NCBI GenBank assembly: GCA_963714095.1
Contig: OY970230.1
Location: 70,206 to 134,205, forward strand
Direction: 5' to 3'
DNA length: 64,000 bases
Source: Candidatus Gottesmanbacteria bacterium
Lineage (GTDB): Bacteria; Patescibacteriota; Microgenomatia; UBA10105; UBA927
Both the position numbers and the translations under genes were made by a program. Below, one piece after another: positions 5,114 to 28,742 of the stretch. Each line of letters starts with the position of its first letter. The stretch's first letter is position 1. The notes under the pieces were generated by a model that ran no database searches, had not been told where the DNA came from, and worked only from the letters and a program-made list of their open reading frames with translations.

Positions 5114-5611
5114 ATGAATAATCTTATTCTTTCCGGTGTTAAAAAACTGTTTCATCTGTCACCCGACCTCGTTCAATCTCAGCTTTTTAACGAGACCACG
5201 TTCTACAAACGGTTTATAACCGATCTTAAGCGCTCTAGAACGGAAGTTATCATCGAAAGCCCGTACATTACATCTCAACGCATGTTTCACCTGACAGAAG
5301 TCTTCAGAGAGTTGGTTCGAAGGAAGGTAAAGGTTTACGTTATCACCCGCGATCCGGACGACCACGATCCAAATCTCAAACGACAGGCAGAATGTGAGAT
5401 CAGACAGTTTGAAACGATGGGAATCCAGGTTTTAATCAGTAATGAATATTCTCACCGGAAACTGGCTATTATTGACCGGAAAGTACTTTGGGAAGGCAGC
5501 TTAAATATTCTCTCCCATACCTGCAGCCGGGAAATTATGAGGCGGATTGACAGTGAAGCTCAAGCCAAGGAATGTTTCAAGTTTATTAACCTTGGAAAAT
5601 ACATTTATTAA
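5114..5611 (+). CDS. Phospholipase D-family (single HKD) nuclease, Nuc-like
   Basis: HRKLAIIDRKVLWEGSLN is an HxK(x4)D...GSxN HKD motif. At 165 aa it is the size of dimeric Nuc-type endonucleases. Good RBS (AAAAGGAGGATC) upstream. Confidence 0.6.
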   Translation: MNNLILSGVKKLFHLSPDLVQSQLFNETTFYKRFITDLKRSRTEVIIESPYITSQRMFHLTEVFRELVRRKVKVYVITRDPDDHDPNLKRQAECEIRQFETMGIQVLISNEYSHRKLAIIDRKVLWEGSLNILSHTCSREIMRRIDSEAQAKECFKFINLGKYIY

Positions 5612-5627
5612 CAAACAATGGTAAATT

Positions 5628-5861
5628 GTGTATAATCGCACTATGAGCAAAATCGGCGGATACCAATTAAACGAAAAAGATATCGATGGCGTCCTTCGAT
5701 TTCTGAAAGCTACCGATCCAGAACATGCCACACCGGAGATGGCTATGGCCTTACTGGCGCATCTTAAAGCTCATTATCACATAAAAGCTTATCTTGAACC
5801 TGAGGAACTCGAAAAAGAGTATAAGGAACTTCTACACGAGATAGAAATGAAGAAGAATTAA
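5628..5861 (+). CDS. Small hypothetical protein (77 aa), helical
   Basis: ORF only. Sits between the PLD nuclease and the convergent HTH gene. Confidence 0.3.
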   Translation: MYNRTMSKIGGYQLNEKDIDGVLRFLKATDPEHATPEMAMALLAHLKAHYHIKAYLEPEELEKEYKELLHEIEMKKN

Positions 5862-6082
5862 AACGAGAGAATTTCCGAAGATTTAACCCCAAGAGCTCCC
5901 AAAATCTTTTTAAGTGTAATGACAGATGGAATAGCATCACCGCGTTCAACTTTAGCGTAAAAATTACTGTTCAAACCGGCTTTCTTGGCTACGTCAGTTT
6001 GAAACAAACCTTTTTTGAGACGGTATTTTTTCAATTTCGAAGCGATGTCCTGCCTTGTCTTTTCATCCTGCGGGTTAAGCAT
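5858..6082 (-). CDS. XRE-family helix-turn-helix transcriptional regulator
   Basis: KKGLFQTDVAKKAGLNSNFYAKVERGDAIPSVITLKKILGALGV is an HTH_3 pattern. Its first 12 codons lie inside the direct repeat. Confidence 0.6.
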   Translation of the reverse strand: MLNPQDEKTRQDIASKLKKYRLKKGLFQTDVAKKAGLNSNFYAKVERGDAIPSVITLKKILGALGVKSSEILSF

Positions 6083-6096
6083 ATAGGGATAGTATA
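6045..6096. repeat. Direct repeat copy 1 (~52 bp), covers the HTH start codon plus upstream sequence
   Basis: at[g/t]tcctgccttgtcttttcatcctgc[ggg/aga]ttaagcata[t/c]agggatagtata recurs at 8331–8382 with about 5 mismatches. Confidence 0.85.
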
Positions 6097-6167
6097 CATC
6101 AACGGTCTACTTTTCTGGAAATATTTATTGGTGTTACTTTTCTATTTATGGCCAAATTTAGTACAAT

Positions 6168-6683
6168 ATGGGCATATTAATTGATATGGATATTAAACAC
6201 TTTATAAGCGGGATACAAACAATTAACTGGGGTAATGTTCTTACTGCAATTTTAGGTATCTATGGGGCCATTTTAACAACTTATACGATTTACAAACAGC
6301 GAAAAGATAAAAAACCTAACGTAAAAACTTCTATATCAATGGGCTTTATGACTGGTGGCTTTGGAGCGAGTGAACTATTTCTTTTTGTTAAGGCCGCAAA
6401 TCATGGTGAAACTCCGGTTGTTCTTAGTTCTTGGCAATTAATATTACCCCATAAAAGACAATTAATTTACCCAAATGCCAACGGACAATCACACTTACCG
6501 TTTGCTTTGGAACAAAACAGAAATTATCAAGTATGGGTACCAGTCAAGGTAATAGCACGATCTTTGAATAAGTATGGATATAAAAACAAAATAAATATAA
6601 AGGCGGTCTATTTTGATGAACTAGAAAATAAGTATATTAGTAAAGATTTTAAGTTCGATATTAAGGAGTGGTTAAAGGAATAA
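6168..6683 (+). CDS. Small membrane protein (1 TM), hypothetical; first gene of the repeat-bracketed cassette
   Basis: TM helix VLTAILGIYGAILTTYTIY; no known motif. Confidence 0.4.
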   Translation: MGILIDMDIKHFISGIQTINWGNVLTAILGIYGAILTTYTIYKQRKDKKPNVKTSISMGFMTGGFGASELFLFVKAANHGETPVVLSSWQLILPHKRQLIYPNANGQSHLPFALEQNRNYQVWVPVKVIARSLNKYGYKNKINIKAVYFDELENKYISKDFKFDIKEWLKE

Positions 6684-6688
6684 ATACT

Positions 6689-8320
6689 ATGACAGATATT
6701 AAGTCACCATTTTTAAGATTTAGACACGGGACACCACTACAGGTTACTCCTGAAATACAACAGTCAATAAAGATATTCGTTGACCAGTATAAAAAGGAAG
6801 GCGAAGCCGCATTTAAAACACTTACTGAGGATATTGCTGACGGCTCTGGTTGGGGCATTCACCCTAACTCAACTTGGTATCGGGCAATTTACGAACTCTT
6901 TCGTATATACCGTGAGTGGGATGAACCGAACAGACAAGAAGCGCTTAAAAAGATTGTTGAAATAATCGAAGCGCTCGCATCTGACACCAATCCTGAAACG
7001 ATATGGGACAAAGTCGCTAATCTTATTAACGATAACATAGAAATTATTAGTGGATGGGAATACTCCCATATAAAACGGTTCAGCGAAGAAGAACATCTTA
7101 TTAGAGACACTGACGGTTCTTATTACAAAGAAGAAAATGGAAGAAAAATCCAAGTCATCGGTACAAAAACCCTTGAAGAAAATAAGTTTGGTTATATTGA
7201 AGACAACATTACTCGTGAACACGGCAACATTGGCATGTTACTAAAATTTATCGAGGAAGTATTTATTTCCCTTGACTTTAAACAAAATCCAAAGCACTAC
7301 CACAAACAACTACAATTCGCACTAAGTGAAAGTGATAATGACACGTGGTTTTTACATGGTTGTTGGCGCGTAAACTCCGCTTATGAGCTTATCCCTATCG
7401 CTTGGCATCCAAGATCCTGTTTTACCGATATTGAGTGGTTGAAAGCCGAAATGATTACTTTATTGGCAAACAAATGTCAGGTTTCTAAAGATGCTATCCC
7501 GGAAATAACTGTGGACGATGATAGTCTATTACAATTTCAAAAAGCTTTTAAAGGGTATCCCACTCAATATGAAGTTTCATTAGACACAAATGTATTACTT
7601 AGCAGTAATCCATTCGGAAAAACACCCCCAGAAGTATATATAGATTTTGGTGATAGAACTATCAGATGGATTAACGGAACAAAATATGTGTTTCCATCAC
7701 TCATTATTCCATCAAAGGATGATAATTATGAGGACGCCCGACAGATTGCACAAAAGTTTGTTAACGCTATTGTATTTTCAGAAAAAATACCCATTAGGAT
7801 TGTCTGGAGTGCCGGTTGCCCAAGTAAATTTCCACCATTAATAAGGCAACCAAGGTTAAGTATATTCATGGGTGTATCACAAGAAATACTGGGCTTACTA
7901 AGTCAACCTAAAAATGATAAAGAATGGGAAGCACTTTCCTATTACAAGGAAGCAGTTAATTCACAAAGTCCTTATTACAAATATGTGTGTTATTACAATG
8001 TCGTAAAACTAGCATTCCTTAATCCGAGCACAAATGATGAAGACAATACTAAAACCGACGATTGGATTAATAAACAAATCCTGAGGTCGGATATTACATC
8101 ACTACAGAAAAAGCTAACCTTACAAAATAGAACATTAGGGGAATATCTTAGGCACGAGGGTGGCAGGGATGCTATCCTACATGTTGGAACTCTTACAAGA
8201 GGCGGAACGCATTCAACCTTAAAACCTGACAATCAAGTGGATAGGCAGAAAATTGAAGAAATAATACCAGTTGTCGAGGAACTAGCTATAAAAGTTATTG
8301 AAACAGGACTGTTGAAATAA
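6689..8320 (+). CDS. Large hypothetical protein (~544 aa), no recognisable motifs; second gene of the cassette
   Basis: Long intact ORF overlapping the upstream gene. Start taken as MTDIKSPF. Confidence 0.5.
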   Translation: MTDIKSPFLRFRHGTPLQVTPEIQQSIKIFVDQYKKEGEAAFKTLTEDIADGSGWGIHPNSTWYRAIYELFRIYREWDEPNRQEALKKIVEIIEALASDTNPETIWDKVANLINDNIEIISGWEYSHIKRFSEEEHLIRDTDGSYYKEENGRKIQVIGTKTLEENKFGYIEDNITREHGNIGMLLKFIEEVFISLDFKQNPKHYHKQLQFALSESDNDTWFLHGCWRVNSAYELIPIAWHPRSCFTDIEWLKAEMITLLANKCQVSKDAIPEITVDDDSLLQFQKAFKGYPTQYEVSLDTNVLLSSNPFGKTPPEVYIDFGDRTIRWINGTKYVFPSLIIPSKDDNYEDARQIAQKFVNAIVFSEKIPIRIVWSAGCPSKFPPLIRQPRLSIFMGVSQEILGLLSQPKNDKEWEALSYYKEAVNSQSPYYKYVCYYNVVKLAFLNPSTNDEDNTKTDDWINKQILRSDITSLQKKLTLQNRTLGEYLRHEGGRDAILHVGTLTRGGTHSTLKPDNQVDRQKIEEIIPVVEELAIKVIETGLLK

Positions 8321-8330
8321 TTTTGAGGTT

Positions 8331-8382
8331 ATTTCCTGCCTTGTCTTTTCATCCTGCAGATTAAGCATACAGGGATAGTATA
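8331..8382. repeat. Direct repeat copy 2, includes a remnant of the HTH N-terminus (MLNLQDEKTRQ) with no gene body
   Basis: Its reverse complement encodes the same first 11–12 codons as the gene at 5858–6082, and then the match ends. Confidence 0.85.
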
Positions 8383-8480
8383 GCAAAAATCGGGATCTGA
8401 GTCTGCAAAGTGTACAAATTGTTAATCAGTATCTATATTGATAGAATAAATACGCTTGACGTAAATTATCGAAGTATTTT

Positions 8481-8858
8481 ATGACTATCTTAGAAGTAAC
8501 AAGCATCGCTAATGTAATTATCCTGCTCATAACTGTTGTGGTAGCCGGAATTTATGCGTGGCTTACTCATGGAATAAGAGAAACATCCATCCAACAACTA
8601 AAACATAGCTTAATGCCATTTCCAATCGTTTATTTAAAGGGCAGAGATTTAAAGGGACATCTAAATACAATCTTTTTAGTTAAAAACATCGGAAATGGAA
8701 CAGCGTTGAATATACAAATTGAGGATTTCAATTTACACATAAAGGACAATATTAACGGCAGAAAAATTGATGAGAAATATAAGATGACTTTAAAAATGAA
8801 AAATCCGAACATTTTAGAAAAGGGTGGAGAAAGTGAATTAATAACAGAACATTCTTAA
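8481..8858 (+). CDS. Small N-terminally membrane-anchored hypothetical protein
   Basis: TM helix IANVIILLITVVVAGIYAWL. A promoter-like TTGACG-N17-TATTTT lies upstream. Confidence 0.35.
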   Translation: MTILEVTSIANVIILLITVVVAGIYAWLTHGIRETSIQQLKHSLMPFPIVYLKGRDLKGHLNTIFLVKNIGNGTALNIQIEDFNLHIKDNINGRKIDEKYKMTLKMKNPNILEKGGESELITEHS

Positions 8859-8869
8859 ATAACAAAAGT

Positions 8870-9073: not shown

Positions 9074-9116
9074 TATTTCTTGAACAAAATCTTCAGTTAA
9101 TAACTGAATCATATAC

Positions 9117-10937
9117 TTATATTTGTCCAGTTAGATTATATTTTTTAGCCGTTGCCTTCAAAAAGTTGTCAACATCTTTCCCAAACCAACCAAAAAACGA
9201 GGCAAAATTGTAAGTCTTGCTCCTTTGCCTTTTTATATCTTCAATCGCCTCAAAGATGAACTTATCGAATTGTTCATAATTTAAAGAGTTGTGTTTATCT
9301 GTTACAAAATAATTTTCTAATTCTGAATAACCTTTTTGTTGATATAGAGTTATTAATCTTTCTAGGATTGGGGATACTTTATCAGAATTCAGGTTTAAGA
9401 AACTAGCAAAATATGCAAACGGCGACTGCCAATAATCATATTCACCGTATACATTGCTTCTTAGTTCATTAATTTTGTATTCCGCTGTCCCATCCGGTAG
9501 CTGTGCCTTCAATTGATTAAACTCAACCTCTTTTAGTTTTTGTTGGGCCACCCAATTATGAATTAGCACTTGCGAGTTAAGTTCCTTGATTAAATCAAAA
9601 GATGCTAACCAATTTTCTTCGTCATCGTCATCATCGAAAACATCAGGTATTAAATAATTTTCTTTACTGGAGTAGTTACTCTTTTCGACAAAGTAATTAA
9701 TTAAGTTTTTATACGACTTTCCATCCGAAGTTCTTAGCTCAGCTATTCCTGAGTACTCTTCCTTGCCACTTGCACTTAAAAACATCATTAATCTGCTTTC
9801 ATGTTCATCTTCCCATTTTGTTTTCAGGTTAATTAGTTTTGAAATATAACTTGAGTTACCTAATTTAGTTGCATAAGCTCCAAGTAGATTAAAAGCAGTC
9901 ATACTCTCTAAAGATGGCAGGCTGAAAGATAAATTTTCATCCAAATATTTATGATTTTGGACAAATTGAATACCATAATTGGGTTTATATCCGTAGGCAT
10001 AAAGCTCTGCTAAAATTTGTAGTAGGCGGTCGAATATTGACGGGTATGATCTTGTTTTGATTAACTGACTACCAAGCAGAACCAGTTTACGTACAGCTGG
10101 CTGTAGCTGACTGACTTTTGCATCATGAGTTAAATCAGTAAGTGTTTCTAGATCTTCAGGTTTAATTGTGTCGTGTTTGGTTTTCTTCCAAGAGCCTATT
10201 GTATTTTGACGTAAATTTTCAATTAGCTCCCGAAGATAGATCGACCGTTCGCCTAAAATTAACTGCTTTATGATATTAAGAAAAATTTCATCCTCCTTAT
10301 AAATTAAAGACAAATCGAAATTTTCCGGTGAAATGAGTTCGTGTGCAAGTGTAGATACCTGTTTTGTTTTCAATGCTTCGCTTACCCTTATTTGTGTTCT
10401 TTTTTCAGTTAATTGTTCCACATATAAATCAAACATTTCATATAAGTCGTTCCTTGTAGCTCGCCGTTTTGAAGATGATCCACTTTTTCCACCGCCCTTG
10501 ATCCAAATTTCACCTAGGTTTAGGTAAGCTTCTTTACCTTGCTCTTTCATCTCCTTCTTGATCAAATGCGGTGGGGTTAATTTATCTTTGGGAAACTCTA
10601 TAACAATGAAGTGTTTATTATCTTTAGTAACAAAAGCGTGACTTTTAAAAGTTATTTCTGGATCAAAATAGGCTGAAAATAAGGAAACTAATTTTCCATC
10701 ATCAAATTCCTGGTAATTAGATACGTCTTTAAAGGTTTTATTGTTTTTATTGTATCCAACAACCAAATACCTGATTGGCTCTGGGGAAAGGGAATTGCAC
10801 AGACTTTGTACATCCTTAATAAATTCAGCTTTATTTTCCAATGTATTCCAATTTATTTGCTCTTTTACCTCAAAATGGGAATACTCACCAAGCTCTTCCT
10901 TTAACAGGTTTAGAATTTTTTGTTCTAGTTCTTCCAT
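9117..10937 (-). CDS. Hypothetical 606-aa protein; N-terminus weakly AlbA_2/Schlafen-like
   Basis: Intact ORF immediately downstream of the degraded hsdR-ygjP genes on the same strand. The N-terminal HFEVKEQ...IRYLVVGYNKNNKTFKDV loosely resembles the ExxLEFK...GG.L.GV pattern. Confidence 0.45.
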   Translation of the reverse strand: MEELEQKILNLLKEELGEYSHFEVKEQINWNTLENKAEFIKDVQSLCNSLSPEPIRYLVVGYNKNNKTFKDVSNYQEFDDGKLVSLFSAYFDPEITFKSHAFVTKDNKHFIVIEFPKDKLTPPHLIKKEMKEQGKEAYLNLGEIWIKGGGKSGSSSKRRATRNDLYEMFDLYVEQLTEKRTQIRVSEALKTKQVSTLAHELISPENFDLSLIYKEDEIFLNIIKQLILGERSIYLRELIENLRQNTIGSWKKTKHDTIKPEDLETLTDLTHDAKVSQLQPAVRKLVLLGSQLIKTRSYPSIFDRLLQILAELYAYGYKPNYGIQFVQNHKYLDENLSFSLPSLESMTAFNLLGAYATKLGNSSYISKLINLKTKWEDEHESRLMMFLSASGKEEYSGIAELRTSDGKSYKNLINYFVEKSNYSSKENYLIPDVFDDDDDEENWLASFDLIKELNSQVLIHNWVAQQKLKEVEFNQLKAQLPDGTAEYKINELRSNVYGEYDYWQSPFAYFASFLNLNSDKVSPILERLITLYQQKGYSELENYFVTDKHNSLNYEQFDKFIFEAIEDIKRQRSKTYNFASFFGWFGKDVDNFLKATAKKYNLTGQI

Positions 10938-10953: not shown

Positions 10954-11687
10954 TTAATAAATCCACTTTTCGTATGATAACGGCATTTTATTTAATTCAT
11001 CTTTGAACATTCTCCACTTCGGTATGTTTTTGTCCATCAATTTCAAAAAGGCGTCGTTGTGCTTTTTCTCTGTCAAATGACAGAATTCATGCACTAGTAC
11101 GTATTCGATGCAAGCCGAGGGCTTTTTAATTAATTCTAAATTAAGCCAGATTGATTTTTTTTGCTGATTACATGATCCCAACGGGTCTTCATGTGCCTTA
11201 TACCAACTTTATTTACTTTGACATTCATTTTCTTTTCCCATTTTATAATTAATTTATCGATAACTTGCTTTAGTTGAATCCGGTACCATTTTGAGAATTG
11301 ATATCCTCTATTATCAAGAGATGTACCCTTCAAGATCTCCAAAATAATTTGTGTTTTACCTTTAATAGATATGTTGGATTTATCGTTAGTTTCCACAACT
11401 TTAAGTCTGTATGGTTTTCCTAAAAAGTAGTGACTTTCACCACTGACGTATTCACGAATCGATTGTCTTTTTTGGTTTTGAAATTTTATTTGTTGTTTCT
11501 TAATCCAAGAGGATCGAGAGATAATTGCCATCCTGATGGCTTCATCCTTCATTTTCAAAGGTGAGGTGATTCTTACCCTGCCAGTCGGAGGCAATACCGA
11601 TACATGAAGATTCTTAATATTCTTTTTTATAACTTGAATCGGTATACCCCTAATTGAAATAGTCTGTTTATCATTATCGGTATTCAT
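10954..11687 (-). pseudogene. YgjP-like (DUF45/M48-type) zinc metallohydrolase, frameshifted
   Basis: The N-terminal piece ends ...GIRHMKTRWD. The C-terminal piece reads GSCNQQKKSIWLNLELIKKPSACIEYVLVHEFCHL (HExxH) in another frame. One base is missing in a G-run near 11178. Confidence 0.6.
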
Positions 11688-14600
11688 TTTGTTCTTTGAC
11701 TAATGCAAAGATCCGATCAAATTCCTCATCGGACACATCTGAAAGGATCTGTCGTAAGTTAATTTTCACCATTCTTTCTTTGATTTTGTTCCCAATCCAA
11801 TCATCTGGGCGGTTTCTCATACCGGTATCAACGTTTAAAGCTAATTCTTCGTCCTGATTCAAATTATCATATAAAGATTGTTTGGCACGTGTATTGACGC
11901 TAGCTGGATAGTGTCCATTTTTACTCGGATCGTTAACTTGTTTTGTTAAATCAGTAATTTGCCGTAAATACTCTTGATACTCCAACGCTTCCTGCCGTCT
12001 GTCCCTAACTAATTGATCAAGAATTTCCGACATTCTCTGGAAATATTTTGGGTTGGTCGGCATCTCATCAATAATTAATCGCCTGACATTATTTTCAATA
12101 GTTTCCGCCACCGCATCTTTATTTTTCTTCATCTCATCCGGTAGATTATCAACTGCCTCTGGGCCTTTGGAAGCTAACATATCAACTAGGGACAAATCAT
12201 CAAAGGCGGAAAATTCTCTGATTCACGAGCGGTTATGTATCGGTCAATCAACATTCGCATATCTGGCTCATATTTTTTGAGATCGATGTAATCGCCGCTG
12301 GCTAGTTTGATCTCGGTCTTTACCTGGCTATAATGTTCAATTTCAATCCTAATCGCGTTTGCTTTCGATTCATCAAATCCTGCCTCAGTTAATTCGTTGG
12401 CAATTTCAGCAAATACCCGAACCAAGTGGGCCGTCATTCGATATAATTTAACCCGTTTAAATTCGTTTTCTTTAAGCGAGTAGGGATTTTCAATATCTCC
12501 ACAGAAATATTTGATGTAATCAACACTTGTTTTAGGAGGGGCCACTGGTTCACAAAGCGCCCGAACCTGTTCAAGTGCTTCTTCCAAATCCTCCTTACCT
12601 TGTCCAAGACGATCCTTAAGAAGTCCCAAAACATCTTCCTTGTCATAGGCGGCAAAAGCTTCACTGGTATAGTCTGTAACAGCCTTTCCAGCTTCTTAAA
12701 AAGATCCCGATAGTCAATAATAAAACCATATTCTTTGTCTTCACCATGTAATCGATTAACTCGGCAAATAGCCTGGAATAACCCATGATCCTGCATGTTT
12801 TTATCAACATACAAATATGTTGCTGGTGGGGCATCAAATCCGGTCAGAAGTTTATCAACCACGATCAGAAGCTGCATCTTGGCGGGTTGCTTAATAAATA
12901 GCTCTTTAACTTGTCTTTCAAAAGCTTCGATTTCTGTTTCATTGGGCTTTTTGGTAATTCCCCCAAAGTTGTTCTTAAAGTTATCAAGCATCTTTTGGTA
13001 AATAGCATATTCGCGATCTTAGGTATTAAGAGCCCCAGCTTCATAAGAGGTCACAATCGCACAATTTTTAAATCCTTTGTTTTGGAAAATTTCATAATAC
13101 TGGCAGGCTTCATAAATTGAACTGGCTACGAGCATGGCATTACCTCGACCGCTGGCAAGTCTTGGTTTCATGAAGTCATCATCCAAAATATCAAACACAA
13201 CTCTTTCTAGCCTAATCCCGGAACTGAGTAATGTTTGCATCGTACCCCAGCGTTTTTTTAACTCTGCTTTGGCAACATCGGTGAGCCCTTGGGTTCGGTC
13301 TTCAAACCAGGCGTCAATCTTGCTCTGGGAAGTAATATCCTGATCCACTCTTCGTGCTTCATACCGTAAATCCAAAACAACCTTATCTTTGACTGCTTCG
13401 TCATACTTATAGGTGTGAATAAAATTCCCAAATGTGGCAATACTATTATGTTTATCGACAGACAAAAGTGGTGTACCAGTAAACCCGATAAAAGTGGCTT
13501 TGGGAAGTAATTCCAGCATGGCTTCATGCAACTTGCCGCCATGGGTACGATGACACTCATCAACAAAGACAAAAATATCCCCTTTGGCTTTGAAGTCACT
13601 TGGAAGATTCTTCTTTATTTCGTTGATAAACTGATCAACATCCTGATCGTTTGCCCCTTCTCTTGATCCGAATTTATGAATTAGAGAACAGATTAGCCAT
13701 TTTTCTTCCTGATTGAGTTTGGTGATTAAGTCTTTAGAATTTTTAGTTCTGTAGATATTTTCTCCAACCCCCCTAAATACCCCCTCAATTTGTTCATCCA
13801 ATTCCGTCCGGTCTGTAAGTATCAATACACGTGACGAAGTTATACTTTCCCTGATCCATTTTGCTAACCAAACCATGGTTAAACTCTTACCGCTGCCTTG
13901 GGTGTGCCAGATAATTCCACCTTCATGCCGTTTGACATATTCCTGAGCTGCTTTTACCCCAAAAAATTGGTTATGTCTGGCTAGTTTTTTACTGCCACTA
14001 TCAAAGACTTCAAAGTCATGGATTATTTCCAGAAACCTTTCCTTTTCACAAAATTGGAGAATATGTTTATCCAGACGAATCTCGTCATCGAGTCCTTTCT
14101 CTTTCCAGGATAGGTAATATTCTTAGCTGTCTCAATCGTGCCGTAGCGCATACCCTCGGTATCATTACCAGCCATGAGTATTTGTATAGTGGTAAAGAAG
14201 TTTTTTATATATTCATTCTTCTGGTTGCCGATATTTGCCGGAGAGCTTCTGAAACCGAGACAATACTTCTTTTTAGTTCAATAACGCCTAAAGCAATACC
14301 ATTCACATAAATCACAATATCGGGTCGCTTCGTCTTTTGTCCCTTTATAGTAACTTCTCGGCAATCGCAAAATCATTTGCTTGAGGATTCGCCCAATCAA
14401 TAAGCCAAACTGTTTCTGTTTGTTCACCAACACCGGCTTTTACCTTAACTCCATAGCGAAGCATACTGTAGATGCTTTGATTAAGATCGTACAAGCTTTG
14501 GATTTGATTTGTCGCAACTCTGGTGAGCTCAAAAATAGCTTTGTCGATCAAATTATCGCTATAGCCCCGAGCCTTGAGGTTATTTCTAAGGAATTCTTCT

Positions 14601-14734: not shown

Positions 14735-14735
14735 A

Positions 14736-18433: not shown

Positions 18434-18568
18434 AATTATTTCGATACAACTGAAATTATTTTGGTTCTGAATCACTGTTAACTATTATAGTACGTTATGG
18501 CTAAAACTGCTTCAGTCTAATGAATCGAGGGTCTTGCCCTATATTTTGTAACAGATAAAATTATCAAT

Positions 18569-19347: not shown

Positions 19348-19349
19348 AA

Positions 19350-19666: not shown

Positions 19667-20689
19667 CTAGCCGACTATAGCCTTATATGTATCCGGCTTT
19701 GATAACTCTGTTACCAAAAAATCAATCCAGTTTTGATTATAAAGAAAATATTTGATCGCTTCCTTATAATCACAATATATTGAATCGTACTTCCAGGAGC
19801 CGTCTTTTTGTTTAGTTCGAATTTTGAAATACTTCCATGCTCTGGCATGGTGAGGATTTGCTTTAAACGGTTTTTTTAATCGATTTTGAACCTCACTAGC
19901 CACATCTGAAGCTCTATATTTATATGGATCATCATGTACGATTTTTTGTATAACTGATGCAGGTTTCAATTCACCGACCAACTTTAATGTAGGTTTACCA
20001 TTTTTTTCAACAAATTGACCTTCTCTAATAAATTTCAGTTTGGGAATTAGTTCATCATCTATTAGCACTATTCCAGATGTGCCTTCGATTTTACCTCTTA
20101 CTGTATCGAGAATGGCCGCATTGCTTGGACCAATTTTTACCATTCGTTCCAGATGCTCTTGCCATGCCCGTCGCTCTTTTGTTAATTTAGAATCTAAAAT
20201 TTGTCTCAACTCAGAATACCTAATCTTTTGTGATCTGCCAGTATAACGATAGTATATCTCGCCATTTTTTATTTCCTGTCCACGTCCACCATCCTTGAGT
20301 GCAATTACAGGTTTATCAATAGATTCCGAGATGTAAATTATTCCGAATTGTTTCCCTGCAATATCAATAACTGATTTTTGCCAATCTATTGATGGAGCAA
20401 AATATTCGTTAACAAATCCCGTAATTTTTTGTTCATCTATTTTATCGAATGTTGAACCATCAATACCAGTCAGGGTGTGGGGTGAATCTTCTACACCAAA
20501 TACCAGATACCCACCTGTATTATTTGAAAAAGCAGCGAAATCCTTCAAATAGTCAGCTATTTCTGCAAAATTAAAGTTTTCTTTGAATTCAAGTTTAGTT
20601 GATTCTCTAGTAAGCAAATAATTCCCAGATTTATGAATGCGAAATATTTGAGATTCAAGAATATTTTTATCGAACACATCATGATCCAT
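19667..20689 (-). CDS. AlbA_2 / Schlafen-like (divergent AAA, putative DNA-binding) domain protein
   Basis: ESTKLEFKENF...DFAAFSNNTGGYLVFGVED matches the AlbA_2 core signature. Confidence 0.55.
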   Translation of the reverse strand: MDHDVFDKNILESQIFRIHKSGNYLLTRESTKLEFKENFNFAEIADYLKDFAAFSNNTGGYLVFGVEDSPHTLTGIDGSTFDKIDEQKITGFVNEYFAPSIDWQKSVIDIAGKQFGIIYISESIDKPVIALKDGGRGQEIKNGEIYYRYTGRSQKIRYSELRQILDSKLTKERRAWQEHLERMVKIGPSNAAILDTVRGKIEGTSGIVLIDDELIPKLKFIREGQFVEKNGKPTLKLVGELKPASVIQKIVHDDPYKYRASDVASEVQNRLKKPFKANPHHARAWKYFKIRTKQKDGSWKYDSIYCDYKEAIKYFLYNQNWIDFLVTELSKPDTYKAIVG

Positions 20690-20906: not shown

Positions 20907-21217
20907 ATGCAACTATTAACTAAAGAACTATTAAACAGATTCGAGAAAGTTGGCAGACAAGAAGAAGTCAGCGATCCGATTGTCATCGCTAAGTTTTTCA
21001 ATCCTGCCGGAGCCGGTACCTGGTATGCGACGGAATACGATCCGAATCAAAAGAATTTTTCGGATACGTTTCCATCTTTGGCGACTGGAACGATGAATGG
21101 GGATCGTTTGCTCTTTCAGAGCTCGAAAACTACCGAGGAAAGTTCGGCTTAGGCATTGAGCGCGATAGATATTTTGGTGAGAAACCGATCAGTGAGGTAG
21201 TACCAAAAGCCAAATTG
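20907..21217 (+). pseudogene. DUF2958-family protein with a 1-nt frameshift
   Basis: LLTKELLNRFEKVGRQEEVSDPIVIAKFFNPAGAGTWYATEYDP then shifts frame at a T5 run (21053–21057). The +2 frame continues FGYVSIFGDWNDEWGSFALSELENYRGKFGLGIERDRYFGEKPISEV, which is the conserved DUF2958 C-terminus. Confidence 0.55.
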
Positions 21218-21261: not shown

Positions 21262-22053
21262 TTATTCCACGTCTTCCCAAATCTCAGCCGTGACCCCGTC
21301 TTTTTGCACATCTTCCTTTTGAGCAAAACTCAAATGTATATTTTCTTCTTCAGCTTCAACCAGGAGTTTTTTAGTATATCGTTTACAGCGGATCAACAGC
21401 TCTTTTGTTTCACAGACAAACAGGATCTCCGGCGCTACCTTAATATGCCCTATCCATTCGCACTCTGTCAAAAATTCAAGATAGGTTCTGATCCTTTTTC
21501 TAACTCGATAGGCAGGAAGTTTGGTTGTAAGAATCTCCAAAAGATAGTAATTCATTTTGTTGTTTTTCTTTCTGGTAAAAACAAGGTGAGGATGAAGCTC
21601 CGATAGCATGCTGGAAAAATAAAAGGAAGATTTTGGGTTTGTATACTCGTTTTCGGTAGCCAACTCAAAAAATAGTTTATCGTTGGGTTGATTTTTCAAA
21701 TCAAGACAAATATCAGCTATGAGTTGGCAGGTAGAAATAAAGGTATCCGACCGGTTTTTATCCCGATATAGTTTTCGTAATACTTCCGGATCGTATCCAT
21801 CTTGTGTCTTTAGCCATCTGATTCCGTTAATCCCCAGGTAATAAACTGCGGGTTGGTTTTTTCCTAAAAATGTCGAGGGATCATAAATTCTATTCAAATA
21901 TTCCTTTTTGACTAGATCTGGTAGCCAGATATTTATTTTTCCTTTACTTTTATGATTGAGGAATTTTTGAATTTGGGTGCTGTTGAGGAATCTGTATGTA
22001 TAGTGTTGTCTTATTATTTCTTGTTGTTGATGTGTTAGTTTTGGGAGTGTCAT
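21262..22053 (-). CDS. Replication-relaxation family protein (mobile-element associated)
   Basis: N-terminal LT.QQ.EIIRQHYTYRFLNSTQIQKFL...LVKKEYLNRIY...PAVYYLGINGIRWL fits the Replic_Relax pattern. Confidence 0.5.
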   Translation of the reverse strand: MTLPKLTHQQQEIIRQHYTYRFLNSTQIQKFLNHKSKGKINIWLPDLVKKEYLNRIYDPSTFLGKNQPAVYYLGINGIRWLKTQDGYDPEVLRKLYRDKNRSDTFISTCQLIADICLDLKNQPNDKLFFELATENEYTNPKSSFYFSSMLSELHPHLVFTRKKNNKMNYYLLEILTTKLPAYRVRKRIRTYLEFLTECEWIGHIKVAPEILFVCETKELLIRCKRYTKKLLVEAEEENIHLSFAQKEDVQKDGVTAEIWEDVE

Positions 22054-22309
22054 GTTTATTTTTTATTTATTATTTTTTATTATTTTTTACTTTAATTTCT
22101 TATGCCACCCCCAACACACTCCGTTTCTTTTAAAGGTAGGTGACACAATATTTTAAAATTAGCCTCAAATATATCATATTTTGGTGATAGCCCGTTATCA
22201 CTAATTTTGTAGGGATTTTCGGACGGGTTTGTGAGTGTTTTTTCTTCTTGATCCACCAGTTTTTCCGGTATTGTCCTTCATCTTTTTACCTGTCTTTTCT
22301 TCCGGTTCC

Positions 22310-25110
22310 TCACTCACCCCAAAGAGTATATTGAGTTGTTTTTCCACCACAGCCCTGGAGTTGCGTAATGTTTTCTGGTATTGGCAATAACAAAGTCCCT
22401 GATCCGATCAGAGCCTTTAATTTCAGGGGAACGGTTTCTCCGGAAAAAGCATCTTCCGAATCCTCATTGGTCACTTTCATAAAGAAGTGATGTGGTGGCA
22501 AGATTAACGATTTCTCCTTTTTCTACTTCCGGTTCCATAAAGGGAAGATAACTGCTTCATCATCCGGGCCGTTTTTAAAGAAATAATCGTTCCGGAATTC
22601 CCCAAGACCACCTTGGCGGTTTTAACATCCTCAATCTGGGCGACATTCTGATGGGAAGGAATGATAAAGACATGGAATTTCCGGGCTTCCGAGAAAATAT
22701 CAGCAAAATGGGCATTGGCAAAGTTTTGAAACTCATCAATATACAGGAAAAAATCTTTGCGTTTATTTTCCGGTATTTGGGCTCTTTGATATGCAGCCAT
22801 CTGGATGAGGGAGATGATGAGCGTACCAAAGAATCCGGACCGTTCTTCTCCCAAGTTTCCTTTAGACAGATTAACCAAAAGGACTTTGCCCTGATCCATA
22901 ACGTCCGAAAACTTAATAGTGCTTTCTGCCTGTAGCAGGATATGCCGGGATAAAGGAGAGGTAATAAACTCACCCAGTTTATTGGTTAAAGGTGAAATCA
23001 TATCTGCTTTTTGCATATGGCCAAACATTTTAAATTCATCAACCCAGAATTGTTTCAAGACCGGATCCTTGAGTGTTGCGGTTACACTTTGCCGATAGCC
23101 GGTATTAGTTAAAAGCTTTTGGATAGTCATCAACGTTGGAGATTCCGTTGTTAGAGCCGTCATCGTGGCATTTCGTAAAATATGTTCCATCCGTTGTCCC
23201 CAATTGGCTTTCGGAGTGATTTTCATGAATACTGAGATAACTGATCCGGTAATCCAGTCGGCTTTTTCTTCCTCATCCACAAACGTTCCTCCGGGATTGA
23301 GGATGTTTAACCCTACCGGCCAAAGTTTGTCTGTCGGATCAAGATAAATGACATCCTTTTTCCTTGATTCGGAATGACACTAATAGTTCCTTAATCATGT
23401 CTCCGTGAGGGTCAATGACTGCTACTCCTTTTCCGGACAAAATATCCTGATAGGCCATCTGTTTAATGATGGTTGTTTTCCCCATACCGGTTTTGCCGAC
23501 AATATAGGTATGTTCATGCCGTTGGACTTGGGTTAACCCGACTGGAGTTTCTTCACCTCCATAGTTGTTTTTTCCAACTACTACATCGAGTTTGGTGGTG
23601 TCTTGTTTCAGTGATAACGGTGCCGGAGATCGCGGCTTTTAGATTTAACCAATCCTTCAGTTTTTGTGGTATCCATATATGGAAAATGGAAAAAATCTGA
23701 AAGTTCCGAAGCGGAAAGGATCGGATTAGGATATAGGGAAGAACTTTGAGATAACGCTCGTTTTTTGAATGACTGTAAACCAGATTGTATGCTGGGAGCA
23801 AACAAGCCGTGCTTCGTAACCAGCGATTGATATGAACTGTTAAGTTGACCAAAAGCAGCCATAAGCCCATTCAATCGGAGATTCACTTCATCACCACTAT
23901 CCGCTACCACCAGAATCCGGATGGATGTTTCAAATAACTCTTGGTCAATCTTTCCTTTGACGATAGTTGAAAGTTCCTGCTCATACGGATTTAAAATCTG
24001 TTGAGGTTTAACTTTCGGGGTGGTATCAACAAAAACATGGGGAGTTTTTGAGTTTTCATTGGCAACCGTCACAATCATTTCCATAACAAAGTTAAATAGT
24101 CCCCAGACGATAATCCAGATAATCCTGATAACCATCCAAAATATCGAAATAACTGGCAGAGAGACGACTTTTTGCAGGAAATCCTTTTGCAGGACTGGTG
24201 TTAACGGTTCACCCTTCACCATTCTTTGCTTCAATGTCTGCATCTCTTTCAAATCTTTTTTGTGTGTTGAAGACAACAATGGCGTGGTTACAACCTGAAA
24301 GGAAATAAGTTCACCGGAGGCAAGTTTGGTCATGTTACCCGTAAGATACGAGATGGGATCATGTTCTTTTAAGGCTGTTTGTGTTTCCAGAGGCAGAGCA
24401 AAATGTCCGGAGAGTTTAAATTCTTCTAACCCCATACATTTCGGGTTATCGTCTTCATGTTTCAGATATGGATCAAGGTAGTCATGGACTACCCGAATAC
24501 GAATACCTGGCAAATATGACCGTAAACTATATTGAATGGTCTCAATGACATTTGGTTCTGCTGCCAGTAGGTACCTAATGCCTTCATTCCGGGTAGAAAC
24601 AATTTCCAATGAATAACCGTTTTTCCGTTGAAGTACATTATCCCAGAAGCTTTTTTGACGAGATAGGGTATGTAACAGGCGGTATAACTCTTCGGTCGCA
24701 TACGCGGATTTTGTCGTATCGGAAGGAAATGTCAGTTCCAGAAATACTTTGGGTGGAACTTTTTGAAACTTTCCAATCCCATATCTCACACCGGCAAGGA
24801 GCTGGAAAACGAATAGCACCAGTATATATCCCAAAAGACACACCACAGCCAGCATGATCAGAGGATAAAAGTTAATGATAACCACCAGAGCTAGAGGTGA
24901 GAGTTTGATGTTAGCAAGAAAGGCTGCATTGTGACCAGAAAGAAAATTGTATATACCAAGTTTTGCACTAATAGGAATAACAGGCAGACTTAAAATGATA
25001 CCCAAAATTAATGTGTTCAGAACCGGCAGCGTGTGGTTTTGGATCTGATGAAGCAGTTGGAGTTGTTCTGCGGTTGGTGTCATATTTGCCCTCCATTCTT
25101 TCGGAAACAT
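22310..25110 (-). pseudogene. Conjugative type IV coupling ATPase (VirD4/TraG/TraD-like) with long N-terminal membrane domain, fragmented into at least 4 frames
   Basis: 500-aa multi-TM N-terminal piece; Walker A HTYIVGKTGMGKTT in another frame (~23440–23640); YLDPTDKLWPVGLNILNP and FLYIDEFQNF (TraG-D_C signature) in the 258-aa piece; 63-aa tail. Confidence 0.6.
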
Positions 25111-25538: not shown

Positions 25539-25673
25539 TTTTCTATCAAATAACTCCCAGATATTTATATTTAAAAGTCTGATTTTATGCACGATCAAAG
25601 TTGTTCTACTTCCAGCAATTGCTTTGTTTACACGATCAGATTTACCTGATAATTTCCTCAAATAATTACCCCT

Positions 25674-25702
25674 TGACATTATGCCTATAGGGATAGTATA
25701 TT
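25674..25702 (+). promoter_or_regulatory. Near-consensus sigma70-type promoter TTGACA-N17-TATATT overlapping the TAGGGATAGTATA motif
   Basis: Read directly; 34 bp upstream of the small ORF 25736–25894. Confidence 0.5.
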
Positions 25703-25735
25703 ATTCCTTATAGAGATAATATTAAGGCTAAAACC

Positions 25736-25894
25736 ATGGGAAGACTAAAAGGATCAGTTAACAAGATTTCTTCAAAAAGACCAAAGACTTCGTCACTTTC
25801 TTCGGAAGATCGCATCAAATTCCTTGCCAATATTATTATCGACCGAATCCTTGAAGATCAGAAGAATGGACAGCCGTTATACAAACAAAATTAA
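25736..25894 (+). CDS. Small ORF (52 aa) immediately upstream of the recombinase, below the ORF-track cutoff
   Basis: MGRLKGSVNKISSKRPKTSSLSSEDRIKFLANIIIDRILEDQKNGQPLYKQN. AGGCTAAAACC upstream is a weak RBS. Confidence 0.3.
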   Translation: MGRLKGSVNKISSKRPKTSSLSSEDRIKFLANIIIDRILEDQKNGQPLYKQN

Positions 25895-25902
25895 GGAACA
25901 AT

Positions 25903-27526
25903 ATGGAGCCTGTAACTAAAATCGAAAATGCTGTTGCCGCTATCCGTGTTTCTTCGGTAAGACAGGGTGTTGATGGTGACTCTCCGGAAGCCCAAAAAGA
26001 ACAAATTGAACGCTTCGCCCAAGTTCATAACATCCATATTAAAAAGTTCTTTATCTTCCTTGAATCTGCCTCAAAAGAAGAACAACCGGTACAGGAAGCC
26101 ATTGATTACTGCAAGCATCCTAAAAACGATATCCAACTTTTCGTTATTAAATCTATCGACCGGTTTACCCGTGGCGGTTCCTTCTTTTATGAAGAACTAA
26201 AAATGCAGTTGGAGAAAAGCGGTGTCCAACTGGTTGATATTTACGGTGTCATCGGCAACAGCAGGTCAATACCTTGAGCATCTTAGGAGTAGCCTTTAAT
26301 TGGAGTGTTTATTCGCCTACCAAAAAATCAGAAATGCTTGAGGCGGAACGGGCAAAAGATGAAATGCGCGACATCATGAGCCGGATGATCGGCGCTGAAA
26401 TCCGCTATTCCCGATTAGGCTATTGGGTACGGGCTGCCCTTTGGGTTCATGAATGTAAAAGTTGAAACCCCAAACGGAACAAGAGTGATATTAAAACCTC
26501 ATCCGATTGAATCTGCTTGGATTATCAAAATGTTTGAACTGCGTTGTCTTGGGAACATTGAGTGACCAGCAAATCGTTGATGAGATCAATAACTCCGGTT
26601 ATAAATCACGGCATAATCTAGTCCGTGATCCCAAAGACCGAACAAAAATAGTCAAGGAAAGAGGCAATCAAAAACTGACACTAAAAGGATTCTGGCGATA
26701 TCTAAAAATCCGATATTTGCAGGCATCAATCTTGTTAATTGGACAAAAGATAATCCCCAAAAAGGGAAAGTTTGACGGATTAGTTTCCATTGAAACCTTC
26801 AATAAGGCCAATAGAGGTAAGATTACTATTCTCAGAGGAAAATGGCGAGATAAAAATCTATCACTGGAAAGACCGCCGGAGTATCTAGTCAAAAAAGGGG
26901 TCCAGAACGCGGATTTCCCATATAAACGGGTCGTCTATGTGTCCCCATTGTAACCGAGCCACTTATGGTAGTGCCTCAAGAGGAAACTTAGGCAAATACT
27001 ATCCGGCCTATCATTGTAATAAACGGGGACATTATTTTCGTGTCTCAAAAAAGGATTTTGACGAAACGATTAAGAAATTCGTTCAGAACATAAAACTTGC
27101 ACCAGGATTTTCTGATGCTTTAGTTAAGGCGGTTTTAAACGAATGGGATAAACGAGAGTCAATGGCATACGGAACGAAACAAAGTCTTGATAAGCGGATT
27201 ATGGAGCTGAAAGCAGAAGAAACGCAATACCGGTAGGCACACTTAAATATCTAACTTCTGAAGTTGCCGTTAAGTTCGTTGAGCAGGAGATGATAAAGAT
27301 TGCCAGTAAGGTTGCGGAACTCATGGCGCAGACAGAAAAAAATATTCAATCAAAACCCACTGATATGCACATGGTCATGGCCTACATAAAATATTTTCTG
27401 GAACACATGGAAGATTTGTTACTTTCAGGCACGAATTCGGTCATGAAAGCTCAATATTTTGGGGTACTTTTTGATATGCGCCAACCTACCAAGAAATACT
27501 TTCTGGAACCCGAATATAGCCGATAG
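25903..27526 (+). pseudogene. Large serine recombinase (resolvase/invertase family), fragmented into ~5 frames
   Basis: Catalytic N-terminus AIRVSSVRQG (Ser nucleophile) and resolvase core IDRFTRG. Later pieces carry the recombinase zinc-ribbon (CPHCNRATYGS...YHCNKRGHY) and a coiled-coil tail. Confidence 0.65.
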
Positions 27527-27701
27527 TTATTGAACTAAATGAGGATTATGCTATTCCCAAAACCAACTTAGTGAGCTCGCAGGGATCCGAACACGAATAT
27601 CCAAGCTAAAAAAAATAGGAGTTACTGTTTGTTTTTCTTTGTTCGGATAATGAAATAGCCTACTCTGACTATGCAGCTAACATATATGATATACTAAGTA
27701 T

Positions 27702-28007
27702 ATGTCAAAAACCGTTCCGAAGCATTTATGGAATTTTTTCTGGGACGTTGACCCCCAGACGCTTGACCCCAACCAAAAAGCAAATTTTGTCATAGGAAGA
27801 CTCCTCGAAAAGGGCAATGATAAAGCGGTTTCTTGGGTACTTCACAACTATCCTCTTAAGACTATTAAGCATGTTTTTAGCACCATCCGGGATTTTAGCC
27901 CGAAAACGGCTAATTTTTGGAGCATATACCTTGGTATTCCGGAGGACGAAATATTATGTTTACAGGAACCTTACCGGAGCCAGCGCAAAAGGCTCTGGCC
28001 GTATTAG
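27702..28007 (+). CDS. Small partner protein of the AbiEii-like nucleotidyltransferase (putative antitoxin-like)
   Basis: LWNFFWDVDPQTLDPNQKANFVIGRLLEKGNDKAVSWVL. Ends at an in-frame TAG 33 nt before the NTase start. Confidence 0.4.
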   Translation: MSKTVPKHLWNFFWDVDPQTLDPNQKANFVIGRLLEKGNDKAVSWVLHNYPLKTIKHVFSTIRDFSPKTANFWSIYLGIPEDEILCLQEPYRSQRKRLWPY

Positions 28008-28040
28008 GAAAAAATTTTTAGTTTCCCTACTCCTACGTAT

Positions 28041-28592
28041 TTGGCCGGAGGGAGCTGGTTGGCATTATATTTAGGACATCGGATTTCGGTGGATTTCGAT
28101 TTTTTTACACCGGTTAGCTTTAATCCGGAAATAATGGCTAAACAGCTTTCTAAGTTGGGAAGTTTTAGTGTAGCCACCATCGCTCCAAATACACTCCTCG
28201 GGGTATTTAATGAAACCAAATTTAGCATGTTCTGTTATGAGTATCCGTCTCTTTTTCCTACAAATAACGTCTGGGGCATACATGTAGCAGATAAACGGGA
28301 TATTGCAGCGATGAAAATAGCTGCGGTCATGGACCGAGGAACAAAAAAGGACTTCATCGATCTGTATTTTCTTTCAAAAGAAGGTATTACGCTTAACGAC
28401 AGTTTAAGCTACTACGATAATAAATATGGCTCTTTGGCAAATAATCTATATAGTATTTTAAAAAGCTTTACCTATTTTGTTGATGCGGAAGAATCGGAAA
28501 TGCCAAAAATGCTAAAACTGGTTTCGTGGGATGAAGTAAAAACATTTTTTAGACATCAATCTACCCACCTTGCCGACACGCTTCTCAAATAA
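28041..28592 (+). CDS. AbiEii/AbiGii-family nucleotidyltransferase (putative toxin), TTG start
   Basis: YLAGGSWLALYLGHRISVDFDFF matches the GGTAL.LY...R.S.DiDf core of DUF1814/AbiEii. Confidence 0.5.
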   Translation: MAGGSWLALYLGHRISVDFDFFTPVSFNPEIMAKQLSKLGSFSVATIAPNTLLGVFNETKFSMFCYEYPSLFPTNNVWGIHVADKRDIAAMKIAAVMDRGTKKDFIDLYFLSKEGITLNDSLSYYDNKYGSLANNLYSILKSFTYFVDAEESEMPKMLKLVSWDEVKTFFRHQSTHLADTLLK

Positions 28593-28742
28593 ATGACAAG
28601 ATATGACAAATAGTCCTCATTGTATTTTATGATGCTGATGCGCAGCATATATATCTCCCGGGAACGGGTAAACGATTATCGAAGCAGTCAAGTCTATACC
28701 AATCACCTGAGTTCAGAGTGATGCTCTAGCTTATTCTGACAA

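Follow-up and report, generated by a model that had tools for sequence, protein, structure and literature searches.

A predicted integrative mobilizable element beside tRNA-Lys in a Candidatus Gottesmanbacteria genome, with apparent gene decay that is probably a long-read consensus artefact

The stretch analysed here, called the window, is 64,000 nucleotides of contig OY970230.1 from the assembly of a Candidatus Gottesmanbacteria (Patescibacteria) bacterium, which is tiny and uncultured. Between a glycan-gene cluster and a tRNA-Lys(UUU) gene it contains an island of low GC (0.32–0.42, versus ~0.46 in the core; overall 0.378 for the island, 0.460 for the right core and 0.424 for the left flank). 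Within the island lies a 22.6-kb strain-variable unit (4977–27570, GC 0.378) that encodes a serine recombinase, a VirD4-type coupling ATPase, a relaxase-like protein and a type I restriction-modification (R-M) operon, and holds all frame disruptions of the window. A preliminary description had taken the locus for an integrative and conjugative element (ICE) with defence cargo whose mobility and R-M genes were being lost. From sequence comparison, the unit is very likely an integrative mobilizable element (IME). We consider it probable that this IME is (largely) intact with its defence cargo, and that what looks like decay arose in the long-read consensus of a strain-variable segment.

On the left, a conserved flank (3340–4945) carries a 387-aa gene (3340–4503, minus strand) and a 105-aa open reading frame (ORF; 4628–4945, plus strand), both of which are found in all assemblies and lie outside the element. 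On the right, the intact tRNA-Lys(UUU) gene (28752–28824, minus strand; called by ARAGORN, and by Rfam with 70.5 bits) has its 3′ end toward the island. The CTP synthase encoded beside tRNA-Lys has its best relatives, at 86–87% protein identity, in Candidatus Gottesmanbacteria, and several of these closest relatives are ‘MFD’ metagenome-assembled genomes (MAGs) with Flye-style contig names. When synteny was compared with related species, as had been proposed, the slot from ribosomal protein L19/tRNA-Lys to the 387-aa gene was occupied by only about 4 kb of other genes or by almost nothing, and a left-flank homolog borders the same slot in loci L067 and L004.

Sister sequences from independent assemblies of the same population were retrieved by exact-protein look-ups, which returned nothing for the 606-aa, AlbA_2, 263-aa and 500-aa ORFs. 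They are contig_73729 (ENA, 552 kb; pieces L081 and L083), two Logan contigs from run ERR11571142 (L082 and L084), contig_46771 (ENA, 21.6 kb; pieces L085 and L174), and L086, a 3.7-kb Logan contig of ERR11571142 that covers window positions 4948–8640. Contig_73729 and L082/L084 are 100% identical to the window without gaps over 40957→27571 and 1→4976, that is, over 13.4 kb and 5.0 kb of core. Beyond these identical flanks, contig_73729 diverges and both Logan contigs stop; on the left, L083 is identical up to 4976, and L084 is identical over 1–4977 and ends there. Because independent assemblies diverge or break exactly at both junctions, the strain-variable unit is 4977–27570 rather than the 5114–28742 given in the preliminary description.

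The two ENA contigs differ in what they hold. Contig_46771 is essentially the element of the window on its own, with about 96% identity. Contig_73729 has a different, 10.1-kb element between the same flanks (L081 13388–21647 and L083 12614–20954), which contains a recombinase with ~70% nucleotide identity to that of the window, small ORFs, HTH_17 and a different type I R-M system. It lacks genes for a type IV coupling protein (T4CP), MobC and DUF2958, and PF07508 appears in it as a weak precomputed match only. The genes of this alternative element are fragmented likewise, next to flawless core, in what is again a Flye-style contig.

The preliminary description had looked by eye for an attachment repeat near 4.5–5.1 kb and seen none. 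There is one, the hexamer GTGAGC, present as a direct repeat at 4971–4976, at the distal end of the element, and at 27571–27576, which is 1.2 kb from tRNA-Lys and 22.6 kb from its left partner. The window and contig_73729 part directly after the left hexamer. At the left end the sequence reads CAAAACAAAGTGAGC up to the junction and GAGCTGTCCC beyond it, and at the right end CCAACTTA up to the junction and GTGAGCTCGCAGGGATCCGAAC beyond it. In the reading direction of the tRNA, the right flank (27571–27615, minus strand) is a degenerate copy of the 3′ half of tRNA-Lys that extends from the anticodon loop to GAGCTCAC, with the hexamer at its end. Neither ARAGORN nor Rfam calls a tRNA at 27571–27615. 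An origin of this remnant from tRNA-Glu was considered and rejected, as the part between anticodon loop and 3′ end gives a better alignment with tRNA-Lys. The element-side sequence TAAGTTGGTTTTGGGAATAGCATAATCC is kept directly after an intact tRNA-Glu (GGGGTCAC) in L090, a relative with intact genes, and directly after an intact tRNA-Lys (GGGCTCAC) in L087, a related element. The degenerate tRNA-Lys 3′ half at the right junction is thus the predicted attachment site. Joining at GTGAGC predicts CAAAACAAAGTGAGCTCGCAGGGATCC for the empty-site junction and CCAACTTAGTGAGCGAGCTGTCCC for the circular attP junction.

The recombinase ORF of the window crosses the right junction into the tRNA-like remnant, with its stop codon at 27607–27609. 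In L090 (7786–7937; L091 981–1132), the 601-aa recombinase ORF runs antisense through a complete tRNA-Lys and a complete tRNA-Glu. The last ~47 codons of that recombinase are chromosomal tRNA sequence and therefore would change on excision.

Outside the variable element, on the plus strand, follow a DUF6922 ORF (27702–28007) and a short AbiEii-like ORF (28041–28592), which the preliminary description had included in the island. This module is common to both strains, being 100% identical in the window, L081 and L082. The AbiEii-like ORF has 183 aa and gives partial Pfam and PADLOC matches, to profile positions ~120–240 only, and its upstream partner is DUF6922, not AbiEi. The pair sits between the intact tRNA-Lys and the degenerate copy of the tRNA-Lys 3′ half (27571–28751). 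An older insertion targeted at the tRNA seems to have left this pair behind, and the serine-recombinase element would have been added to that remnant later.

The mobility genes of the element begin at its right end with a large serine recombinase (LSR) of ~600 aa (25903–27609, plus strand), which is in at least seven frame pieces in the window. Its Resolvase domain (PF00239) is matched with E = 5.5e-10 in a window fragment and 1.6e-8 in the L090 homolog; Zn_ribbon_recom in the intact L090 homolog is a weak match (E = 0.002), below the cut-off. Next comes a homolog of an 87-aa backbone ORF (25666–25888, plus strand), with a frame switch near 25708 in the window and intact in contig_46771. The VirD4-type coupling ATPase, a T4CP of ~961 aa, is encoded at 22207–25110 on the minus strand with seven 1-nt lesions. 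It is composed of an N-terminal DUF8128 membrane region, TrwB_AAD_bind/DUF87 and TraG-D_C, and four coupling-ATPase fragments of the window join into one protein of ~960 aa. Intact T4CP homologs are found by the hundreds in Microgenomates-group bacteria.

Downstream of the T4CP gene lies the gene of a MobC-type (Replic_Relax, PF13814) relaxase-like protein of 263 aa (21262–22053, minus strand), which is intact and matches the intact L090 homolog over its full length with 86.7% identity. It scores 25.6 bits against PF13814, for which the cut-off is 25.3, and the L090 homolog scores 27.6; many homologs have precomputed PF13814 matches. AlphaFold2 predicts (pLDDT 89) a winged helix and an alpha/beta domain like that of PD-(D/E)XK nucleases. 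Its fold matches, all weak, are MarR-type winged helix-turn-helix proteins and, for the alpha/beta domain, restriction endonucleases, and the family profile matched nothing meaningful among PDB sequences. The last backbone gene is DUF2958 (20907–21217, plus strand; 104 aa when intact), with a frame switch near 21041–21059, as residues 1–51 and 47–104 of the L090 homolog are matched in two window frames.

The intact L090 has serine recombinase (601 aa), 87-aa ORF, T4CP (961 aa), 263-aa gene and DUF2958 in this order, and order and orientation are the same in the window from 27.6 to 20.9 kb. Neighbourhoods of T4CP genes were surveyed in 80 metagenome loci together with L087 and L090. The 263-aa gene follows T4CP in 22 loci and DUF2958 follows in 11. 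In 12 loci a recombinase gene is present upstream, and its 3′ end usually adjoins a tRNA gene (Ser, Arg, Gly, Leu, Lys or Glu). The same module adjoins tRNA 3′ ends in many Patescibacteria. In the related element of L087 (13873–22886), where T4CP identity is 83%, a diversity-generating retroelement (DGR) pair, RVT_1 and bAvd, is directly beside DUF2958; an N6_N4 methylase, a DEAD/ResIII helicase and an OLD-TOPRIM/AAA_15 protein are also encoded there, and an IS1595 transposase lies upstream of T4CP.

No VirB4, VirB6, VirB8 or pilin family was found when 44 ORF fragments from 4.6–28.6 kb were scanned with Pfam, nor were pore genes of a type IV secretion system (T4SS) found in the intact relative L090. 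The element is classed as an IME rather than an ICE because it has a recombinase, a relaxase-like protein and a coupling protein without mating-pore or T4SS genes. Without VirB4 or other pore components, it is not self-transmissible by the canonical route. The preliminary description was therefore right on horizontal acquisition, on integration beside tRNA-Lys, on cargo of the defence type and on the recombinase and the VirD4-like and replication-relaxation (MobC-type) genes, and wrong on the class. An IME is also consistent with the recombinase at one end between repeat-bounded junctions, with the replacement at the same site between close strains (contig_73729, and other content in related species), and with a relaxase next to a coupling protein in the absence of a pore, the relaxase being assigned by homology only.

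We conceive that the large serine recombinase would recombine a site on the element with a chromosomal tRNA-type 3′ end, using the core GTGAGC/GCTCAC. The MobC-type relaxase-like protein, with its nuclease fold, would then process the excised DNA, and the 961-aa coupling ATPase would pass it to a transfer pore supplied in trans. The remaining genes would be defence cargo, namely a PLD nuclease, two AlbA_2-like proteins, the type I R-M system with its YgjP peptidase, and several genes of unknown role.

The cargo starts at the left end with an intact PLD-family nuclease (5114–5611, plus strand; Pfam PLDc_2, E = 1.6e-13) that has MkoC/DrmC/DpdK-like matches in PADLOC; the identical protein is encoded in L085 and L086. 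Before its start codon, at 5100–5104, the window has a run of six A, and contig_46771 and the Logan contig have five. The sixth A is a probable homopolymer error of the window, in non-coding sequence. Small cargo genes, all intact, occupy 5643–8858: a 72-aa ORF, an HTH_3 regulator (5858–6082, minus strand), a 171-aa ORF, a 543-aa protein with a MauJ-like C-terminus (6689–8320), which is 100% identical to the L085 copy, and a 125-aa ORF. L086 reads TTT GCA TGA (2368–2376) where the window reads TTC GCA CTA (7316–7324), and the 543-aa ORF is thereby stopped (CTA→TGA, 7322–7324). With three substitutions within seven bases, this looks like a real variant, not an error.

A 606-aa protein of a rare family with an AlbA_2-like N-terminus (9117–10937, minus strand; intact) follows. 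It has no match in Pfam, PADLOC or NCBIfam. Among 1.84 billion representative sequences, 118 reach E ≤ 1e-3 and four reach E ≤ 1e-30. Most of them align solely to the N-terminal ~370 residues, which are weakly similar to the neighbouring AlbA_2 protein. The top match among them, P0323 (601 aa), has 60% identity and can be aligned with residues 1–603; the 567-aa form in contig_46771 is accordingly the truncated one.

The YgjP-like metallopeptidase (10957–11687, minus strand; 244 aa when intact) matches profile positions 6–149 and 144–206 in two frames of the window owing to a 1-nt deletion at 11177. Contig_46771 has an extra C and an intact 244-aa ORF, the residues of which are 100% identical to both window frames. 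The type I R-M operon (11677–18433, minus strand), recognised by Pfam and colinear with an intact operon in L092, consists of hsdM (15956–18433, ~811 aa; HsdM_N and N6_Mtase), hsdS (14739–15993; Methylase_S) and hsdR (11677–14734, ~1021 aa; HSDR_N, SWI2_SNF2 and T1R_D3). The second half of hsdS (window 14854–15326 versus L174 11188–11707) is unalignable between the copies, with 95–97% identity in flanking sequence. This suggests that the sister copies have exchanged a target-recognition domain and hence would differ in R-M specificity.

The region at 18524–19652 contains unannotated ORFs in three frames of the plus strand. Beyond it, an intact AlbA_2/Schlafen-type protein of 340 aa is encoded at 19667–20689 on the minus strand (Pfam SLFN_AlbA_2, E = 4e-20; PADLOC PDC-S19/S50). 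It has 340 aa in contig_46771 too, with one substitution, and is the ORF to which the 606-aa protein is weakly similar.

Frame disruptions were mapped by scanning the 44 stop-to-stop fragments with Pfam and by comparing the genes with intact homologs, those of L090 for the backbone and those of L092 for the R-M operon. Where fragments of one strand adjoin but differ in frame, they cover consecutive parts of one profile or homolog, such as N6_Mtase 3–33 and 35–310 or T1R_D3 2–41 and 62–158. SWI2_SNF2, HSDR_N, Methylase_S, TraG-D_C, P-loop, Resolvase and DUF2958 are split in the same way. Because neighbouring frames match successive profile parts, the disruptions are real features of the sequence as given, as had been reported. 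It had likewise been reported that the adjacent core has none, and the core is indeed free of them across 40 kb: large ORFs span their Pfam profiles end to end, gene calls have complete domain sets, and the gapless identity to independent contigs is 100% over the 13.4 kb and 5.0 kb compared.

The lesions total roughly 35. The T4CP gene has seven shifts, at 23626, 23381/23366, 22576, 22544, 22497, 22420 and 22356; hsdR has five (~14360, 14234, 14125, 12685 and 12214) and a TAA nonsense codon at 13019–13021; hsdM has two, near 18201 and 17940; hsdS has two; DUF2958 has one; and the serine recombinase has at least 6–8. Frames are also broken in the YgjP-like gene and in two small backbone ORFs, the homologs of the 87-aa and 56-aa genes. 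The preliminary description had every listed mobility and R-M gene interrupted and the small cargo intact. The former holds for the recombinase, T4CP, DUF2958 and hsdM/S/R but not for the replication-relaxation gene, which is the intact 263-aa gene. The latter holds for the PLD nuclease, the HTH gene, the 606-aa ORF and the AlbA_2 gene, YgjP being a further broken gene; the AbiEii-like ORF is short and atypical, yet identical in three assemblies.

When the window was compared with contig_46771, each copy had its own lesions. In reference residues, T4CP is disrupted at 485, 570, 837, 848, 858, 890 and 907 in the window and at 248, 344, 372, 428 and 821 in contig_46771; hsdM at 79 and 162 versus 141 and 238; and DUF2958 at 49 versus 20. 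YgjP, the 87-aa ORF, the 56-aa ORF and recombinase residues 1–203 are broken solely in the window, and the 606-aa ORF, truncated to 567 aa, solely in contig_46771. No lesion clearly common to the window and contig_46771 was found, there being one ambiguous near-coincidence in hsdR. Every T4CP lesion of the window is a 1-nt difference, with the frame-restoring base present in contig_46771. The same is seen throughout and in both directions: where either copy is broken, the other has the base that restores the frame.

In all, 615 substitutions and 65 indel events separate the copies, and almost every indel event is of 1 nt; among the indel events listed, 65 of 72 are 1 nt, and the largest is 4 nt. 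Substitution-free alignment totalling 10.3 kb contains 12 indels and no substitution. At 18666–19268, 17 single bases are missing from contig_46771 relative to the window, almost without substitutions, and bases are missing from the window in bursts at 20.77–21.04, 22.06–22.58 and 23.37–23.63 kb. The substitutions fall on third codon positions of the local frame at 73–86% in every segment (T4CP, hsdR, the 263-aa gene and the recombinase). This bias in all segments argues that full-length proteins have been under purifying selection throughout the divergence of the copies. Fragment lengths sum to full-length genes, no truncation, large deletion or insertion sequence (IS) was seen in the disrupted genes of the window, and homologs in the short-read assemblies examined are uninterrupted.

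Taken together, these comparisons make it highly probable that most of the lesions are assembly errors. The great majority of the ~35 disruptions would be consensus errors of one base each, made in a metagenome assembly from long reads, probably Nanopore only. They would be limited to the segment that differs between co-occurring strains, where read support would therefore be lower or mixed. The preliminary description had named indels confined to a low-coverage or strain-variable region as the finding that would speak against decay. Even without reads, the ends of the lesion-bearing segment were found to coincide with the points where assemblies diverge and Logan contigs break. The ‘MFD’ MAG project used Flye and one round of Medaka on Nanopore-only data (PMC12313526), and contig and isolate names suggest that the same pipeline, Nanopore-only Flye with one Medaka round, is the likely source of the window.

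Several points weigh against reading the locus as an intact IME damaged only in its consensus. Read depth and per-site support are inferred. Thirty-seven of the 65 1-nt indels lie outside homopolymer runs, and runs of at least 7 are less frequent in the island (0.35/kb) than in the core (0.96/kb); a model of homopolymer errors only was rejected on these two grounds. Lesions are much sparser in the left 6 kb of the element than in its remainder, because of either higher read support, a Logan contig having been assembled there, or equally selection on the cargo. Patescibacteria may lack mismatch repair, which would raise natural ±1 indel rates. The hsdR lesion near 14360 is within a few bases of a contig_46771 lesion and could be inherited. 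Two stops are of substitution type, which is less typical of indel-type consensus error: GAA→TAA in the window (13021) and CTA→TGA in L086. As to the IME itself, mobilization, excision and relaxase activity are predictions, with a PF13814 match barely above the cut-off.

Because of the near-coincidence at 14360, the substitution-type stops, the indels outside homopolymers and the possible lack of mismatch repair, a minority of the lesions may be real polymorphisms. In the form in which a few lesions (the hsdR nonsense codon, ~14360 and the L086 TGA) are real variants of a dispensable R-M system and the rest consensus errors, we regard this as a serious though somewhat unlikely alternative. In its favour, substitution-type stops occur in two different copies, a nearly coincident deletion is seen in two alleles that differ by ~10% in that block, and the R-M specificity region differs between the copies, which indicates real turnover. 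Each such lesion, however, is in one assembly only, and low-depth consensus yields substitutions as well. For 14360, a coincidence is expected by chance at ~10% given the lesion densities. An ancestral hsdR frameshift shared by both copies was examined there at the nucleotide level and is ambiguous, as the deleted bases appear different: the window seems to lack the G of GAG(G)AAG, and contig_46771 one A of an A-run.

Genuine decay, in which real frameshifts remove mobility and R-M functions while useful cargo is kept, was the domestication proposed in the preliminary description, and we consider it quite improbable. It would account for the confinement of disruptions to the island beside 40 kb of clean core, for the intact cargo of the left 6 kb and intact AlbA_2 and 263-aa genes, for the hsdR nonsense substitution and the near-coincident hsdR lesion, and for the many shifts outside runs in an island without enrichment of long homopolymers. 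It does not account for the 96%-identical sister copy with a private lesion set, none of it clearly common, or for 12 indels versus 0 substitutions in 10.3 kb. Natural pseudogenes have roughly 1–3 frameshifts per nonsense mutation; the window has ~35 frameshifts and a single nonsense codon. Third-position bias is strong downstream of every lesion, gene lengths are preserved without deletional erosion, truncation or IS insertion, and the short-read relatives examined are intact. Moreover, two different elements have been swapped at one site between strains with 100% identical flanks, and decay would require a dead recombinase in each of them.

That the frame changes are biological yet harmless (programmed frameshifting, an alternative code or split genes) has a practically negligible chance, since, even though the original frame is often regained after two to five events (hsdM, the hsdR N-terminus and T4CP), all but one lesion are frame changes and not reassigned stops, so that an alternative genetic code was rejected, their positions differ between the two island copies and are without counterpart in intact homologs, and no common slippery motif was seen at the sites.

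Some observations concern the window at large. The whole island gave no match by megablast to plasmid and phage collections. An Rfam scan of the island returned nothing beyond tRNA-Lys and one sub-threshold skipping-rope match inside the T4CP gene (24181–24304, minus strand; 24.5 bits versus a gathering cut-off of 36.7, E = 0.1), probably by chance. In the core, the pyrimidine operon (35085–37985, minus strand) has three tandem OTCace_N + OTCace paralogs of 308–327 aa beside dihydroorotase, where one aspartate carbamoyltransferase is the expectation.

An intact IME with consensus errors is of interest in two respects. First, clusters of frameshifts limited to strain-variable islands of long-read MAGs can mimic selective gene decay, and comparing independent assemblies exposes such artefacts without reads. 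Their signs are private lesions, indels without substitutions, and a codon-position bias that continues across supposed frameshifts. Second, the element provides a concrete context for many unexplained coupling ATPases of Patescibacteria. A survey of this phylum reported 5,713 VirD4-like T4CPs, of which only 148 lay close to virB4, and did not settle what they do; relaxases were few, MOBC being the commonest class, with 39 near a t4cp (PMC12102498). We tentatively propose that the orphan T4CPs are not exapted chromosomal genes but belong to the mobilization module of widespread integrative elements. These would combine an LSR, a T4CP, a divergent MobC-type relaxase and DUF2958, would use serine recombinases, unusually, at the 3′ ends of diverse tRNA genes, and would carry R-M systems, DGRs and nucleases of the OLD and PLD types as defence cargo from strain to strain. 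If this is true, the module would provide the ‘very different relaxases yet to be found’ and suggest DNA transfer as a function of the conserved T4SS of Patescibacteria. A clade of serine recombinases with tRNA-end specificity is also suggested, which may be of interest as integration tools.

The lesions resemble those of indel-rich, low-coverage regions of Nanopore-only assemblies in being single-base, deletion-biased, clustered and assembly-specific beside a clean, high-coverage core, and differ from them in that many events here lie outside homopolymers. As for the element, the T4CP of the window probably belongs to the same protein population as the orphan VirD4-like T4CPs of Patescibacteria (PMC12102498). 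They were not assigned to integrative elements in that study, whereas the T4CP here lies in a recombinase-bounded, strain-variable, tRNA-associated one, with a MobC-like partner whose scores mostly do not exceed family thresholds. Like ICEs, the element has cargo and encodes a recombinase as well as coupling and relaxase-like proteins.

Islands made by tRNA-targeting tyrosine integrases are, like this element, inserted at the 3′ end of a tRNA, and they share with it a boundary marked by part of a tRNA copy, tandem modules at one tRNA, low GC and defence-related cargo. They differ in that the recombinase here is of the serine family and the repeat is 6 bp, not a long tRNA-derived one. In a streptococcal survey, tRNA 3′ ends were used by tyrosine integrases only, and serine integrases hit rumA, traG, maff2 and snf2 (PMC5357655). 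Mycobacterial prophage surveys likewise found tyrosine integrases at tRNA 3′ ends and serine integrases that ‘integrate elsewhere’ (PMC10654092).

The closest known class is the streptococcal IME_Class_8, defined by a serine integrase, a MobC relaxase (the family of PF13814) and VirD4 (Coluzzi et al. 2017, PMC5357655). It has the same protein triad, and is likewise compact, without mating-pore genes, integrated site-specifically and variable in cargo. No description of the present element family was found in the literature searched, which is weak evidence of novelty, and we judge the family to be moderately novel. The relaxase is assigned here from its predicted fold and from a Pfam score at the borderline. 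The family is set apart from IME_Class_8 mainly by its integration site, the recombinase acting at tRNA 3′ ends, and also by its host, a Patescibacterium, by a coupling protein of ~960 aa with a ~480-aa N-terminal DUF8128 membrane region, and by the conserved DUF2958 and 87-aa genes of its module.

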